The notes under the pieces: generated by a model
Told to the model about the DNA's origin: nothing
Seen by the model: the letters and a program-made list of their open reading frames with translations, nothing else
The model's database searches: none
Translations under genes and position numbers: made by a program
From: Enterobacteria phage SP
Sequence record: JF719740.1
Length of the DNA stretch: 4,189 nucleotides
Direction: 5' to 3' (one strand)
In this document: positions 1 through 4,189 of the stretch, piece by piece
Layout of the letters: each line of letters begins with the position of its first letter
How positions within the stretch are numbered: position 1 is the stretch's first letter

Positions 1-5
1 AGGAG
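1..5 (+). promoter_or_regulatory. Shine-Dalgarno-like AGGAG upstream of the maturation protein start
   Basis: AGGAG at 1..5, then a 5-nt spacer before ATG at 11..13. The window starts here, so the upstream leader is not visible. Confidence 0.5.
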
Positions 6-10
6 AATCT

Positions 11-1363
11 ATGCCAACCCTTCCGAGAGGTCTTCGCTCCGGATCGAATGGCGAAGTCCTTAATGACTTCGAGGCGCTCTGGTTTCCAGAGCGCCATACC
101 GTAGATCTAAGCAATGGGACCTGCAAGCTCACTGGTTATATCACTAACCTGCCTGGCTACAGTAACATATTCCCTAATAGAGGAGTCACTGTTGCTCGTA
201 CGCCGTACAGAAGTACAGTGCCCGTTAACCATCTTGGTTACAGGCCAGTTACGACTGTTGAGTACATTCCCGACGGAACTTACGTGCGCCTCGATGGGCA
301 CGTGAAATTTGAAGGGGGCTTGGTTAATGGGTCAGTTGATCTCACGAATCTCGTGATCTCGTTAGCTGCTCAGGGTGGCTTCGATTACCAATCGGTAATC
401 GGACCTAGGTTCTCTGCGCGCTTCTCCGCGTTTAGCACCAAATATGGTGTCTTACTCGGAGAAGGGAGAGAGACTCTTAAGTATCTTCTCCTGCTGCTTC
501 GCAGAATGCGTGAAGGGTACCGCGCCGTAAGGCGTGGCGATCTCAAGCGTCTCAGGAATGTGATATGGACGTTCGAGCCGAGTACCGTAAAAGGTAAACG
601 AGCAAGGGCCGAGTTTTCACAGACCTATCGCGACAAGCTTACCGGAAACAAGGTCGAGGTTAGACCGAGTGAAGGTAAGTGGAATAGCAGTAGTGTGAGT
701 GACCTGTGGTTAGAGTTCCGTTATGGGCTGATGCCGTTATTCTACGACATACAGTCCGTTATGGAAGACTTCATGCGTGTTCATAAGAAGATCGCAAAAA
801 TTCAGCGGTTTTCAGCTGGACACGGTAAGCTCGAGACGGTTAGTTCGCGGTTTTACCCGGACGTCCATTTCGGCCTTGAGGTCACTGCAGTGTTACAGCG
901 GCGTCATCGTTGGGGTGTCATATACCAGGATACTGGTTCTTTTGCCACTTTCGACAATGGTCGTCTAGTCCCGGTGAAGGACTGGAAGACAGCGGCGTTT
1001 GCACTCCTTAATCCCGCCGAAGTTGCGTGGGAAGTTACCCCCTACAGCTTCGTGGTGGATTGGTTTGTAAATGTTGGTGATATGCTTGAGCAGATGGGCC
1101 AGCTTTATCGGCACGTCGATGTCGTTGACGGTTTCGACCGGAAAGACATAAAACTCAAATCCGTATCAGTACGCGTGCTAACGAACGACGTTGCGCATGT
1201 TGCTAGCTTTCAGCTGCGACAAGCAAGACTGTTGCATAGTTATTACTCGCGCGTGCATACCGTTGCGTTTCCGCAAATTTCACCACAGCTCGATACTGAG
1301 ATCCGTAGCGTTAAGCACGTAATCGATAGTATCGCCCTATTAACCCAACGCGTTAAGCGTTGA
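11..1363 (+). CDS. A2: Maturation (A2) protein; in Qbeta-like phages also the lysis effector that inhibits MurA
   Basis: 450-aa ORF, ATG at 11 and TGA at 1361..1363. First gene in the levivirus order. The N-terminus MPTLPRGLR..., internal motifs (LWLEFRYGLMPLFYDI, EVAWE.TPYSFVVDWF.NVGD, GQLY...D.VDGFDR.DI.LKS) and the C-terminal LLTQRVKR match my recollection of the Qbeta A2 protein. Confidence 0.92.
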   Translation: MPTLPRGLRSGSNGEVLNDFEALWFPERHTVDLSNGTCKLTGYITNLPGYSNIFPNRGVTVARTPYRSTVPVNHLGYRPVTTVEYIPDGTYVRLDGHVKFEGGLVNGSVDLTNLVISLAAQGGFDYQSVIGPRFSARFSAFSTKYGVLLGEGRETLKYLLLLLRRMREGYRAVRRGDLKRLRNVIWTFEPSTVKGKRARAEFSQTYRDKLTGNKVEVRPSEGKWNSSSVSDLWLEFRYGLMPLFYDIQSVMEDFMRVHKKIAKIQRFSAGHGKLETVSSRFYPDVHFGLEVTAVLQRRHRWGVIYQDTGSFATFDNGRLVPVKDWKTAAFALLNPAEVAWEVTPYSFVVDWFVNVGDMLEQMGQLYRHVDVVDGFDRKDIKLKSVSVRVLTNDVAHVASFQLRQARLLHSYYSRVHTVAFPQISPQLDTEIRSVKHVIDSIALLTQRVKR

Positions 1364-1382
1364 ACTTTGGGTCAATTTGATC

Positions 1383-1781
1383 ATGGCAAAATTAAATCAG
1401 GTAACTCTTTCCGAAATCGGAAAGAATGGGGATCAGACTTTAACTCTTACACCGCGCGGGGTAAACCCGACGAACGGCGTGGCGTCGCTATCTGAAGCTG
1501 GAGCTGTTCCGGCATTAGAGAAGCGCGTAACTGTGTCAGTTGCGCAGCCATCTCGGAACCGTAAGAACTTTAAAGTTCAGATTAAACTCCAAAACCCGAC
1601 TGCATGCACGAAGGACGCATGTGACCCATCTGTGACGCGATCTGCTTTCGCAGACGTAACGCTGTCGTTCACGTCGTATTCTACCGACGAGGAACGTGCG
1701 CTGATTCGCACTGAATTGGCAGCTCTACTGGCGGATCCACTGATTGTCGATGCTATTGACAATCTGAACCCAGCCTACTGA
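1383..1781 (+). CDS. cp: Major coat (capsid) protein
   Basis: ATG at 1383 gives MAKLNQVTLSEIGKNGDQTL...NLNPAY (132 aa plus stop), ending at TGA 1779..1781. It is near-identical in pattern to the allolevivirus coat protein (PRGVNPTNGVASLS.AGAVPALEKRVTVSV.QPSRNRKN.KVQ, STDEERA..RTELAALLA.PL..DAID.LNPAY). The ORF track starts at an in-frame TTG at 1377, but the conserved N-terminus points to ATG 1383 as the real start. Confidence 0.95.
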   Translation: MAKLNQVTLSEIGKNGDQTLTLTPRGVNPTNGVASLSEAGAVPALEKRVTVSVAQPSRNRKNFKVQIKLQNPTACTKDACDPSVTRSAFADVTLSFTSYSTDEERALIRTELAALLADPLIVDAIDNLNPAY

Positions 1782-2378
1782 GCGGCGTTACTGGTAGCCT
1801 CGTCCGGCGGTGGGGATAATCCCTCCGATCCAGACGTCCCGGTTGTCCCAGACGTCAAACCGCCAGACGGTACGGGGCGCTATAAGTGCCCCTTCGCCTG
1901 TTACCGCCTCGGTAGTATTTACGAGGTCGGTAAGGACGGTTCTCCTGACATTTATGAAAGGGGAGACGAAGTCTCAGTCACTTTCGATTACGCTCTCGAG
2001 GATTTCCTTGGGAACACGAATTGGCGTAACTGGGATCAGCGATTATCAGATTATGATATAGCTAATCGTCGTCGTTGCCGTGGCAATGGGTACATCGACC
2101 TAGATGCAACCGCTATGCAGTCTGATGATTTCGTATTGTCAGGCCGCTACGCGGTGCGAAAGGTCAAGTTTCCCGGCGCCTTCGGCTCAATCAAGTATCT
2201 CTTGAACATTCAAGGTGATGCCTGGTTAGACTTATCCGAGGTAACAGCGTACCGTTCCTACGGAATGGTTATTGGTTTCTGGGCAGACTCTAAGAGCCCG
2301 CAGCTACCAACCGATTACACGCAGTTTAACAGTGCGAATTGCCCTGTGCAGACGGTGATAATCATACCCTCACTTTAA
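1383..2378 (+). CDS. A1: A1 read-through protein (coat fused to a C-terminal extension; minor capsid protein)
   Basis: In-frame continuation beyond the coat UGA. The extension begins AALVASSGGGDNPSDPDVPVVPDVKPPDGTGRYKCPF... and carries the conserved block LGNT.WR.WD.RLS......CRGNGYIDLDAT, then KPGAFG.I, then VIGFW, ending ...CPVQTVIIIPSL. This matches the Qbeta A1 read-through domain as I recall it. The ORF-track entry 2115..2378 is the Met-initiated tail of this same frame. Confidence 0.85.
1779..1781 (+). other. Leaky UGA stop codon of the coat gene (programmed read-through site)
   Basis: TGA at 1779..1781 is followed by G (UGA-G). The same frame stays open with no stop from 1782 to TAA at 2376..2378; I translated it codon by codon. 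Confidence 0.8.
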
Positions 2379-2387
2379 GCAACTTAA

Positions 2388-2392
2388 AGGAG
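2388..2392 (+). promoter_or_regulatory. Shine-Dalgarno sequence of the replicase gene
   Basis: AGGAG at 2388..2392 with a 5-nt spacer before ATG 2398. Confidence 0.6.
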
Positions 2393-2393
2393 A

Positions 2394-2413
2394 TAGCATG
2401 CCAAAGACAGCTA
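2394..2413 (+). promoter_or_regulatory. Translational operator hairpin (coat-protein binding site) enclosing the replicase start codon
   Basis: UAGC-A-UGCC AAA GACAGCUA. Pairs are 2394-2413, 2395-2412, 2396-2411, 2397-2410, 2399-2409, 2400-2408 and 2402-2406, with A2398 (the A of the AUG) bulged, one C-A mismatch (2401/2407) and a 3-nt loop AAA. The architecture is the same as the Qbeta operator (8-bp-type stem, bulged A, 3-nt loop) as I recall it. Confidence 0.6.
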
Positions 2414-4128
2414 GTCGCAGAAGAGAAATTACTCAACTATTGGGTAAGGTCGACATCAACTTCGAAGACGACATCCATATGTCTATTGCTAATGACCTCT
2501 TTGAGGCCTACGGCATCCCTAAACTTGATTCGGCGGAGGAGTGCATTAACACCGCATTCCCGAGCCTCGATCAAGGCGTTGACACGTTTCGTGTCGAATA
2601 CTTACGCGCCGAAATCTTATCAAAGTTTGATGGGCACCCTCTCGGTATTGATACCGAAGCGGCTGCATGGGAAAAGTTCCTAGCGGCCGAGGAGGGTTGT
2701 AGACAAACGAACGAACGACTATCGCTAGTTAAGTACCACGATAATTCCATTTTGTCGTGGGGCGAGCGTGTTATTCACACGGCCCGTCGAAAAATACTTA
2801 AACTAATCGGCGAGTCTGTACCGTTCGGGGATGTGGCGTTGCGCTGCCGTTTTTCTGGCGGCGCGACGACCTCGGTTAACCGTTTACACGGTCATCCGTC
2901 GTGGAAGCATGCCTGTCCGCAGGATGTTACCAAACGCGCATTCAAGTACCTGCAAGCCTTTAAGCGGGCCTGTGGTGACGTTGTAGATCTACGCGTCAAC
3001 GAGGTGCGCACTTCAAATAAAGCAGTCACTGTTCCAAAGAACAGTAAAACTGATCGCTGTATTGCTATCGAGCCCGGCTGGAATATGTTTTTCCAGTTAG
3101 GCGTCGGTGCAGTGCTACGCGATAGGTTGCGTTTATGGAAGATTGATCTTAATGACCAATCGACCAATCAACGCCTCGCGCGTGATGGGTCTCTGCTAAA
3201 TCATTTAGCTACCATAGACTTATCTGCAGCCAGCGATTCAATCAGCCTTAAGCTTGTTGAGTTGCTCATGCCCCCTGAATGGTATGACCTTCTAACGGAT
3301 CTCCGATCCGATGAAGGAATACTGCCTGACGGGCGAGTTGTGACCTATGAGAAAATATCCTCCATGGGTAATGGCTACACTTTCGAACTCGAGTCGCTTA
3401 TTTTTGCGGCTATCGCTCGAAGTGTGTGCGAGTTACTGGAAATTGACCAATCTACTGTTAGCGTGTACGGGGATGATATAATCATCGATACCCGTGCCGC
3501 AGCTCCATTAATGGATGTCTTTGAGTACGTCGGGTTCACTCCTAACAGAAAGAAAACGTTCTGCGATGGACCCTTCCGCGAATCGTGCGGTAAGCACTGG
3601 TTCCAAGGGGTAGATGTAACGCCCTTTTACATACGACGACCAATACGTTGCCTAGCCGATATGATACTTGTATTAAATAGTATCTATAGGTGGGGCACTG
3701 TTGATGGCGTATGGGATCCTAGAGCACTGACCGTTTACGAAAAGTATCTTAAACTGCTGCCAAGAAATTGGCGTCGCAATCGGATACCAGACGGCTACGG
3801 AGACGGAGCTCTCGTCGGATTGGCTACGACGAACCCGTTTGTAATAGTTAAGAATTATTCAAGACTATACCCGGTATTAGTTGAAGTCCAGAGGGACGTC
3901 AAGCGCAGCGAGGAGGGTAGTTATTTATATGCCCTCCTACGTGATCGCGAGACACGTTACAGTCCTTTCCTGCGTGACGCAGATAGGACTGGTTTTGATG
4001 AAACGCCGCTAGCTACTAGCCTTCGTCGCAAGACAGGTCGGTACAAAGTGGCGTGGATTCAGGACAGTGCCTTCATCCGGCCCCCGTATTTTATTACGGG
4101 AATTCCCGAGGTGAAGCTCGCAAGCTAG
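2398..4128 (+). CDS. rep: RNA-dependent RNA polymerase (replicase beta subunit)
   Basis: 576-aa ORF, ATG 2398 to TAG 4126..4128. The YGDD catalytic motif (VSVYGDDIIID) is encoded at 3466..3477. Conserved blocks match the Qbeta replicase from memory: CRFSGGATT, HPS.K, NKAVTVPKNSKTDRCIAIEPGWNMFFQLG, NHLATIDLSAASDSISL, VTYEKISSMGNGYTFELESLIFA, FRESCGKH, VDVTPFYIR, YRW...DGVWDPRA. Confidence 0.95.
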   Translation: MPKTASRRREITQLLGKVDINFEDDIHMSIANDLFEAYGIPKLDSAEECINTAFPSLDQGVDTFRVEYLRAEILSKFDGHPLGIDTEAAAWEKFLAAEEGCRQTNERLSLVKYHDNSILSWGERVIHTARRKILKLIGESVPFGDVALRCRFSGGATTSVNRLHGHPSWKHACPQDVTKRAFKYLQAFKRACGDVVDLRVNEVRTSNKAVTVPKNSKTDRCIAIEPGWNMFFQLGVGAVLRDRLRLWKIDLNDQSTNQRLARDGSLLNHLATIDLSAASDSISLKLVELLMPPEWYDLLTDLRSDEGILPDGRVVTYEKISSMGNGYTFELESLIFAAIARSVCELLEIDQSTVSVYGDDIIIDTRAAAPLMDVFEYVGFTPNRKKTFCDGPFRESCGKHWFQGVDVTPFYIRRPIRCLADMILVLNSIYRWGTVDGVWDPRALTVYEKYLKLLPRNWRRNRIPDGYGDGALVGLATTNPFVIVKNYSRLYPVLVEVQRDVKRSEEGSYLYALLRDRETRYSPFLRDADRTGFDETPLATSLRRKTGRYKVAWIQDSAFIRPPYFITGIPEVKLAS

Positions 4129-4142
4129 GCACTAGCTTGTGA
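4118..4142 (+). other. Stable RNA stem-loop spanning the replicase stop codon
   Basis: UCGCAAGCUA (4118..4127) pairs with UAGCUUGUGA (4133..4142): 10 bp including one G-U pair. The loop is GGCAC (4128..4132), or GCA if G4128-C4132 also pair. The UAG stop (4126..4128) sits at the top of the stem. Confidence 0.5.
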
Positions 4143-4189
4143 TGGGAAGGGTGGTCTCTGACCGCCCGAGAGGAGAAAGAAAGAAAACT
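4129..4189 (+). other. 3' untranslated region (apparently incomplete; no CCCA terminus within the window)
   Basis: Non-coding sequence after the replicase stop. It ends in a purine-rich tract GAGAGGAGAAAGAAAGAAAA (4168..4187) rather than the pyrimidine-rich ...CCCA 3' terminus typical of leviviruses. Confidence 0.55.

Follow-up and report, generated by a model that had tools for sequence, protein, structure and literature searches.

A coding-complete, terminally incomplete cDNA-sense sequence, very probably of a laboratory isolate of the RNA coliphage SP

Results

Gene content and layout

Four genes occupy the stretch of DNA analysed here (4189 nt; 'the window'), all lying on the plus strand in the order A2, coat, A1 read-through and replicase (Table 1); the ORF coordinates thus bear out a preliminary description of this DNA, which had given the same order on one strand with 19-nt gaps between genes. 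The longest ORF of the minus strand reaches 91 aa. Each of the four proteins matches a Pfam family (E-values 1e-48 to 1e-258), and the solved structures that match proteins of the window are all from phage Qβ.

Table 1. Features of the window, numbered from its first nucleotide
Feature	Position	Strand	Description
5′ UTR remnant	1-10	+	Shine-Dalgarno-like AGGAG at 1-5, five nt upstream of the A2 AUG
A2 maturation protein gene	11-1363	+	450 aa, UGA stop; ORF, Pfam, exact protein match
Putative replicase binding region S	1287-1399	+	Spans the coat start; X07489 misc_feature 1331-1443 minus 44
A2-coat intergenic gap	1364-1382	+	Exactly 19 nt
Coat gene	1383-1781	+	132 aa; ends in a predicted leaky UGA at 1779-1781
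A1 read-through gene	1383-2378	+	331 aa, coat plus 198-codon extension; ends in UAA at 2376-2378
A1-replicase intergenic gap	2379-2397	+	Exactly 19 nt; Shine-Dalgarno AGGAG at 2388-2392
Candidate coat-protein translational operator hairpin	2394-2413	+	Encloses the replicase AUG; alignment and comparative pairing
Replicase β subunit (RNA-dependent RNA polymerase) gene	2398-4128	+	576 aa; Pfam, structures, exact protein match
Putative replicase binding region M	2585-2912	+	Inside the replicase gene; X07489 misc_feature 2629-2956 minus 44
3′ UTR, proximal part	4129-4189	+	Lacks the final 43 nt of the genome with its terminal CCCA; from comparison with the ends of GQ153935

The A2 protein carries the Phage_mat-A domain (PF03863, E=5e-86) and matches the Qβ A2 structures 5vlz and 5mnt (E~1e-116); the gene is annotated as encoding the maturation protein in every SP record. 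Following this, the coat protein is recognised both as Levi_coat (PF01819, E=3e-58) and through the Qβ coat structures 1qbe, 5kip and 4l8h (E~1e-60 to 1e-66). Its identity is 98.5% to the coat of SP (X07489) and 97.0% to that of FI strain BR1, dropping to 90-91% for NL95 and FI and to 78-80% for Qβ and M11; in agreement with the earlier opinion that this protein is closest to SP/FI-type phages.

Past the UGA that terminates the coat gene the reading frame remains open, with in-frame stops at codons 133 and 332 only. The A1 product contains the Read-through domain (PF16814, E=1e-48) and matches the Qβ A1 domain structures 3rlc and 3rlk (E=2.5e-47), and SP records annotate the product of this interval as the read-through protein. 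The open frame, taken together with this homology, predicts that ribosomes read through the UGA to give A1.

The replicase matches RNA_replicase_B (PF03431, E=6e-258) and the Qβ replicase structures 3mmp, 4q7j and 3agp (E~1e-202), with the YGDD catalytic motif found at amino acids 357–360 (nt 3466-3477); this RNA-dependent RNA polymerase is the sole replication gene in the window. The two putative replicase binding regions, S and M, take their function from the depositor's annotation of X07489; with respect to that record region S contains one substitution (at position 1288) and region M three.

A single sizeable alternative-frame ORF, encoding 114 aa in the +1 frame (positions 2339-2683), straddles the A1/replicase junction, the site of the L gene in MS2. 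We considered this ORF as a hidden lysis gene and rejected it: it is not conserved, because stops break the frame in NL95, FI, M11 and Qβ, and an ORF of 114 aa is about what chance would supply in 4.2 kb.

Extent of the genome covered

By comparison with GQ153935 and X07489, the window runs from position 45 to position 4233 of the SP genome (4276 nt). The 5′-terminal 44 nt (GGGGG...) and the 3′-terminal 43 nt (...CUCCUCCCA) are both missing, and the window is for this reason a partial genome, complete in its coding sequence but not at its termini. The preliminary description had called the window a Qβ-like genome with the full gene set; this holds, the one correction being the absence of the two ends. 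Ends missing in this way would be expected from the sequencing of RT-PCR amplicons generated with primers inside the genome ends.

Within the part of the 3′ UTR that is present, we see a stable hairpin with an 8-bp stem at positions 4149-4167 (GGGUGGUC UCU GACCGCCC); the fold of the interval 4125-4189 has a free energy of -17.9 kcal/mol (z=-1.66).

Comparison with SP and its relatives

Phage SP, whose sequence dates from the 1980s, is a classical F-specific RNA coliphage of group IV (serogroup IV) and belongs to the species Qubevirus faecium, family Fiersviridae; the genus Qubevirus was formerly known as Allolevivirus. A megablast search of a phage collection returned eight SP records that each align to the window as one gapless piece, over 100% of its 4189 nt and at 98.9-99.8% identity; the SP records compared are assigned to Qubevirus faecium in their taxonomy. 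The best match is GQ153935 ('SP_ancestral'; 99.8%, seven substitutions in 4189 nt), and the SP reference, X07489/NC_004301, is 98.9% identical (48 substitutions). Five laboratory isolates of SP are 99.5-99.8% identical to the window, with 100% coverage and no gaps. As the window is covered completely at 99.8% identity to SP, and as all four of its proteins find their Pfam families, the gene set and the level of identity lie, at the level of sequence, far beyond chance.

The four CDS have matching coordinates in the annotation of every SP record, and the same layout is annotated in the eight SP records, FI, NL95, M11 and Qβ. The SP sequences GQ153935, JF719738/JF719739 and X07489 (= NC_004301) are colinear with the window over 4189 nt and have CDS of identical length (450/132/331/576 aa), both intergenic gaps in SP records being 19 nt here as there. 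At the protein level three of the products have exact counterparts amongst the NCBI proteins of Enterobacteria phage SP: A2 is identical to AEQ25560.1, coat to AEQ25562.1 and replicase to AEQ25559.1/AEQ25563.1. It had been proposed that the window represents a known or closely related phage and not a new system, and the exact matches support this; the check on whole-genome identity that had been suggested for deciding between a known isolate and a new species likewise points, at 99.8% to SP_ancestral, to the known phage SP. The sequence of the window has almost certainly already been deposited in GenBank.

Moving outwards from SP, protein identity to the window is graded, with SP above FI BR1, FI BR1 above NL95 and FI, and these above Qβ and M11. 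FI BR1 (FJ539134), NL95 (AF059243) and FI (NC_028902) are of the same species and architecture as SP, with coat identities across the three of 90-97%. FI BR1 is 91.8% identical to the window in nucleotides and has CDS of the same lengths, whereas NL95 and FI reach only about 79-81% in nucleotides, about 72% in A2 and 83-86% in replicase, and differ from the window in the lengths of A2, A1 and replicase.

Qβ (Qubevirus durum), which serves as the model of the genus in both mechanism and structure, shares with the window its gene order, a coat UGA followed by an open read-through frame, the replicase YGDD motif and a bulged-A operator hairpin whose loop has 3 nt; like Qβ, SP probably lacks a separate lysis gene. 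Its nucleotide identity to the window is ~74%, in short stretches only, and similarity is detectable only across ~470 nt around the coat gene. Protein identity between the two is only 47% for A2, 80% for coat, 58% for A1 and 56% for replicase; compared with Qβ, SP has an A2 that is 30 aa longer and a replicase that is 13 aa shorter.

A candidate operator hairpin at the replicase start

The candidate operator (UAGC-A-UGCC AAA GACA-GCUA) has a stem of eight positions with a bulged A, closed by a loop of 3 nt. In an alignment of seven genomes (SP, FI, NL95, M11, Qβ) the hairpin is kept: 93.8% of the cells are paired, versus 21–48% in slid controls; at two pairs both partners have changed in a compensatory manner (U-A<->A-U and A-U<->U-A). 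Taken by itself the hairpin folds only weakly, at -2.6 kcal/mol (z about 0 for the single sequence against shuffled ones), and neither the operator nor the coat-start fold displays extra stability over shuffled sequence in single-sequence tests (z = 0 to +1). The candidate is, then, supported by comparative analysis and unsupported by thermodynamics alone. An Rfam search at a permissive E-value yielded no matching family for a Qβ-type operator or for the replicase sites; the only result, a sub-threshold minus-strand hit to the Yersinia sRNA Ysr209 that scored 28.6 bits (gathering score 59; E=0.058), was taken as chance.

An operator function is known for the corresponding hairpins of Qβ and MS2 (reviewed in PMC10610835), and from these we infer the same role for that of SP. 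One pair of the SP hairpin, 2401/2407, is a C·A mismatch, in place of which the operator hairpins of NL95 and FI have U-A; repression mediated by the coat protein could perhaps be weaker in SP than in FI, NL95 and Qβ.

Strain-level substitutions

We compared the substitutions of the window with those of six SP sequences. With respect to SP_ancestral, the window encodes S186W in A2, K11E in coat and A536T in replicase, the other four substitutions being synonymous. None of the six has 567 C>G or 2589 C>T, and W186 of A2 likewise occurs in no compared SP sequence other than the window. A linked group of four A>G changes (472, 1288, 1413 and 2348) is common only to the window and the mutagenised line GQ153934. 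The records GQ153912-35 comprise ancestral and mutation-accumulation genomes of laboratory phages, SP included, that were grown on E. coli C IJ1862 (PMC2776273). Substitutions specific to the window might be adaptive, or might represent a standing haplotype in laboratory SP stock. Overall, we think it unlikely that either account of the SP substitutions, or a weakening of repression by the C·A mismatch, is correct.

These differences also provide what case there is for a distinct and undescribed Qubevirus, whether a new strain or a new species allied to SP and FI: the phage collection holds no record that is 100% identical to the window (the best being 99.8%), and the changes at 567 and 2589 occur in none of the six SP sequences. 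Against this, seven substitutions in 4189 nt fall within the spread of laboratory clones of the same stock, sister lines differing from the window by 14-22; moreover the A2 protein, the unique W186 included, exactly equals the deposited AEQ25560.1, with coat and replicase also being exact SP matches. We consider a new Qubevirus very improbable.

RNA genome or DNA-borne copy

The sequence is presented as DNA, without the authentic ends of the RNA, as a cloned or PCR-derived fragment would be, and for Qβ there are infectious cDNA plasmids (PMC2776273); even so, we find it extremely improbable that a cDNA clone or some other copy in DNA (a plasmid insert or a chromosomal integration) stands here in place of the viral RNA genome, as neither end carries a vector or non-phage flank, all 4189 nt align to SP, and a record derived by RT-PCR is technically cDNA anyway, which leaves the nature of the entity unchanged. 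Membership of a DNA replicon had been named as an observation that would count against a phage genome of this type; megablast searches of 72,556 plasmids and 20,395 E. coli genome records, taking in all complete E. coli genomes, found zero matches to the window, and we reject it. The absence of matches to allolevivirus proteins had been named alongside, and here the maturation, coat and replicase matches are very strong.

Promoters and terminators had not been expected in such a genome, and indeed neither is enriched: there is one promoter-like site where 4.1±2.0 are expected, and there are six terminator-like sites where 3.8±1.9 are expected. Together with the lack of plasmid and E. coli matches and an RNA-dependent RNA polymerase as the only replication gene, this indirectly favours a single-stranded RNA genome with no DNA stage, as in the genus Qubevirus.

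Discussion

The features found in the window are those of a Qubevirus: a length of ~4.2 kb, the order A2, coat, A1 and replicase on one strand, a coat UGA followed by an open A1 extension, a replicase with YGDD and a hairpin at its start codon. Recognition of the window as a cDNA-sense genome of a Qβ-like allolevivirus (now Qubevirus), as made in the preliminary description, is upheld by the alignment to SP, by the annotations of the SP records and by the four Pfam families. We conclude, with a probability of roughly 98%, that the window comes from a laboratory isolate of coliphage SP, a positive-strand RNA phage, whose sequence it reproduces in cDNA sense with all four genes present; none of the results speaks against this identification.

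Homology to Qβ predicts that the genomic RNA of SP doubles as mRNA. Of its genes, coat would be the most translated, with occasional read-through of the coat UGA yielding the minor capsid protein A1, and the replicase β subunit, together with host factors (EF-Tu, EF-Ts and S1 in Qβ), would copy the RNA, as well as repress translation of the coat gene by way of the S and M binding regions. Coat dimers, in turn, are predicted to bind the hairpin at the replicase AUG; thereby switching off translation of replicase and nucleating packaging.

MS2-type phages (Emesvirus) have a separate lysis gene, whereas in Qubevirus it is A2 that carries out lysis. By its homology to Qβ A2, the A2 protein of SP would act in attachment to the pilus, as an RNA-binding component of the virion and in lysis; present as a single copy, it would bind both the RNA and the F pilus and also cause lysis (in Qβ, by inhibition of MurA), so that SP, like Qβ, would lyse its host without a separate lysis gene. 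For Qβ, lysis through the action of A2 on MurA is documented (PMC10610835).

The window is therefore ordinary and already known; it is not a new system and is no longer a candidate for anything new, and its practical value is as a positive control for recognition from raw sequence. Should the reading of its substitutions as adaptive or as a standing haplotype, or that of a weaker operator, prove true, this would be a small strain-level detail of a known phage. The hairpins, the overlapping ORFs and the in-gene stop of the window are to be interpreted through Qβ-like biology, that is, as UGA read-through, an operator and the S and M sites.

Identity with phage SP

Compared by megablast with 50,697 phage records, the window as a whole aligns in a single gapless piece, at 100% coverage, with eight Enterobacteria phage SP records; the closest of them is GQ153935 ('SP_ancestral'; 99.8% nucleotide identity, 7 differing positions), followed by JF719739 (99.7%), by GQ153934, GQ153933 and JF719738 (99.5–99.6%) and by the reference X07489 / NC_004301 (98.9%; 48 differences from X07489). 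Identity falls to 91–92% for FI strains BR1 and relatives and to 79–84% for NL95 and FI, with Qβ at about 74% over a match limited to ~470 nt around the coat gene; the taxonomy of the SP, FI and NL95 records is Fiersviridae, Qubevirus, Qubevirus faecium. By exact-sequence look-up in the NCBI proteins, A2 is AEQ25560.1, the coat protein AEQ25562.1 and the replicase AEQ25563.1, all of Enterobacteria phage SP, the last being identical to AEQ25559.1 of JF719739; this numbering continues directly from AEQ25556–59, the proteins of JF719739. The window is an already known phage genome, and almost certainly one already deposited; the preliminary description had thought a known or closely related phage most likely. 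The GQ153912–35 records come from six laboratory phages, SP among them, and comprise their ancestral and mutation-accumulation genomes; the phages were obtained from J. J. Bull and had E. coli C IJ1862 as host (PMC2776273).

All four products score far over the curated Pfam cut-offs, each in its expected family, and the nearest solved structures are in every case those of Qβ (see table). Protein identity declines in the order expected of a group IV phage, the coat protein lying nearest to the SP/FI-type phages, in line with the preliminary description. Many members of the 90%-identity clusters of A2, coat and replicase come from Logan assemblies of public sequencing runs and one comes from ENA, their contigs measuring about 4.0–4.3 kb; public read archives therefore contain unannotated genomes of SP/FI-like phages. 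Some of the clustered coat entries are 150–195 aa long, probably through upstream starts picked by gene callers.

The preliminary description had left its reading open to two objections: a lack of significant allolevivirus protein matches, or signs of a DNA replicon. The protein matches are strong, and neither the 72,556 plasmid records searched nor the 20,395 from complete E. coli genomes contain a match to the window; megablast finds no flanking non-phage sequence within it. There is no enrichment in the window of either sigma-70-like promoters (1 found against 4.1±2.0 expected) or terminator-like sites (6 against 3.8±1.9), as had been anticipated; this fits an RNA genome needing neither.

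Gene organisation and lysis

The mechanical ORF list gives four long ORFs on the plus strand and, across the whole window, no minus-strand ORF longer than 91 aa. Taken with our reading of the junctions, it follows that the layout described beforehand—A2, coat, A1 read-through and replicase on one strand, with two 19-nt gaps—is accurate; the finding is real, its interpretation correct, and the window keeps throughout to the textbook Qubevirus plan. The ORF list begins the coat ORF at a TTG (1377), the annotated start being the ATG at 1383; its UGA stop (1779–1781) lies in the context UAC UGA GCG GCG, and in-frame stops across the A1 frame are found only at codons 133 and 332, with the final UAA at 2376–2378. 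Replicase residues 357–360 are YGDD.

Features of the window. Identities are global, at the protein level, against SP X07489 / FI BR1 / NL95 / Qβ; regions S and M follow the X07489 annotation.
Feature	Position	Strand	Details	Pfam family (E)	Nearest structures (Qβ)	Identity (%)
A2 (maturation protein)	11–1363	+	450 aa; UGA stop	Phage_mat-A (5e-86)	5vlz, 5mnt, 5vm7 (with MurA)	96.9 / 95.6 / 72.3 / 47.3
A2–coat gap	1364–1382	+	19 nt, then coat AUG			
Coat	1377/1383–1781	+	132 aa from annotated ATG	Levi_coat (3e-58)	1qbe, 5kip, 4l8h (with operator RNA)	98.5 / 97.0 / 90.2 / 79.7
A1 (coat read-through)	1383–2378	+	coat frame open past 1781	Read-through domain (extension; 1e-48)	3rlc/3rlk (read-through domain)	98.2 / 94.9 / 75.5 / 57.6
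A1–replicase gap	2379–2397	+	19 nt; AGGAG Shine-Dalgarno at 2388–2392, then replicase AUG			
Replicase (β subunit)	2398–4128	+	576 aa	RNA_replicase_B (6e-258)	3mmp, 3agp, 4q7j (core complexes)	99.5 / 97.4 / 86.3 / 55.6
Replicase binding region S	1287–1399		1 substitution vs X07489			
Replicase binding region M	2585–2912		3 substitutions vs X07489			
Operator hairpin	2394–2413		UAGC-A-UGCC / AAA / GACA-GCUA			
3' UTR hairpin	4149–4167		8 bp; GGGUGGUC-UCU-GACCGCCC			
Junction ORF (probable chance ORF)	2339–2683	+	114 aa; TTG start			
Ysr209-like match (almost certainly chance)	932–969	−	Rfam 28.6 bits, gathering 59, E=0.058			

Modelled on Qβ (PMC10610835) and on what is established for the genus, the plus strand would serve as mRNA, and coat would be translated more than any other gene. 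When the coat UGA is occasionally decoded, the protein would be extended to give the minor capsid protein A1—both the open A1 frame and the read-through domain are present in the window—whilst the replicase β subunit would combine with host translation factors to form the holoenzyme, and coat dimers would bind the operator hairpin around the replicase AUG.

MS2-type phages have their lysis gene (L in MS2) at the position of the A1/replicase junction; in the window, this junction is spanned by an ORF in the +1 frame relative to replicase. Open in SP, this ORF is truncated in FI BR1 and broken by 1–5 stops in NL95, FI, M11 and Qβ, so that it looks like a chance ORF and not a lysis gene. Because A2 of Qβ inhibits MurA (PMC10610835) and a separate lysis gene is apparently absent, we attribute lysis to A2, which by analogy would carry it out in SP.

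RNA elements

The operator hairpin encloses the replicase AUG. In an alignment of the window with SP, FI BR1, NL95, FI, M11 and Qβ, 93.8% of cells are paired, against 21–48% in controls with the 3' partners shifted by 1–3 columns, and the two basal pairs are reversed between the SP/FI and Qβ groups, one from U-A to A-U and the other from A-U to U-A; the hairpin thus has comparative support, genuine but from a small sample. Folded as a single sequence it is thermodynamically unremarkable. At the third pair from the loop (2401/2407) all SP isolates carry a C·A mismatch, whereas FI BR1, NL95, FI, M11 and Qβ have U-A; the C at 2401 also turns replicase codon 2 from Ser to Pro, and the mismatch may weaken coat-protein repression in SP.

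Just 3' of the replicase stop lies a stable, GC-rich hairpin followed by a purine-rich AGGAGAAAGAAAGAAAA tract. No Rfam family matches any part of the genome, operator hairpin included; the sub-threshold resemblance to the Yersinia sRNA Ysr209 is almost certainly chance.

Substitutions and termini of this isolate

Relative to SP_ancestral, four changes are synonymous (A2 E154, A2 Q426, A1 V322, replicase F64) and three alter amino acids (A2 S186W, coat/A1 K11E, replicase A536T). At 472, 1288, 1413 and 2348 the window has G for the A of SP_ancestral, a state common only to GQ153934 ('SP_3'), a nitrous-acid mutation-accumulation line, among the SP records (at 472 FI BR1 also carries G); this suggests that the four linked A>G changes did not arise as independent mutations but belong to one haplotype that was segregating beforehand in the stock kept in the laboratory. 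The change at 4003 is common to the window and JF719739, and those at 567 and 2589 are found in the window alone among six SP sequences compared: the former is the non-conservative S186W (A2 codon 186, TCG>TGG), the latter a synonymous TTC>TTT in replicase codon 64, inside the annotated M-site, with T also in FI BR1.

The window corresponds to positions 45–4233 of the 4276-nt SP genome (GQ153935/X07489 numbering); absent are 44 nt at the 5' end, with its G-rich start (GGGGGUAGGGGGG...), and 43 nt at the 3' end (...CUCCUCCCA). JF719738 and JF719739 are labelled 'partial genome', and the window aligns from their positions 2 and 3, so all three starts fall within two bases; this shared start suggests that the genomes were sequenced from amplicons whose primers lay inside the termini. 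RNA transcribed from the window would be without the termini recognised by the replicase.
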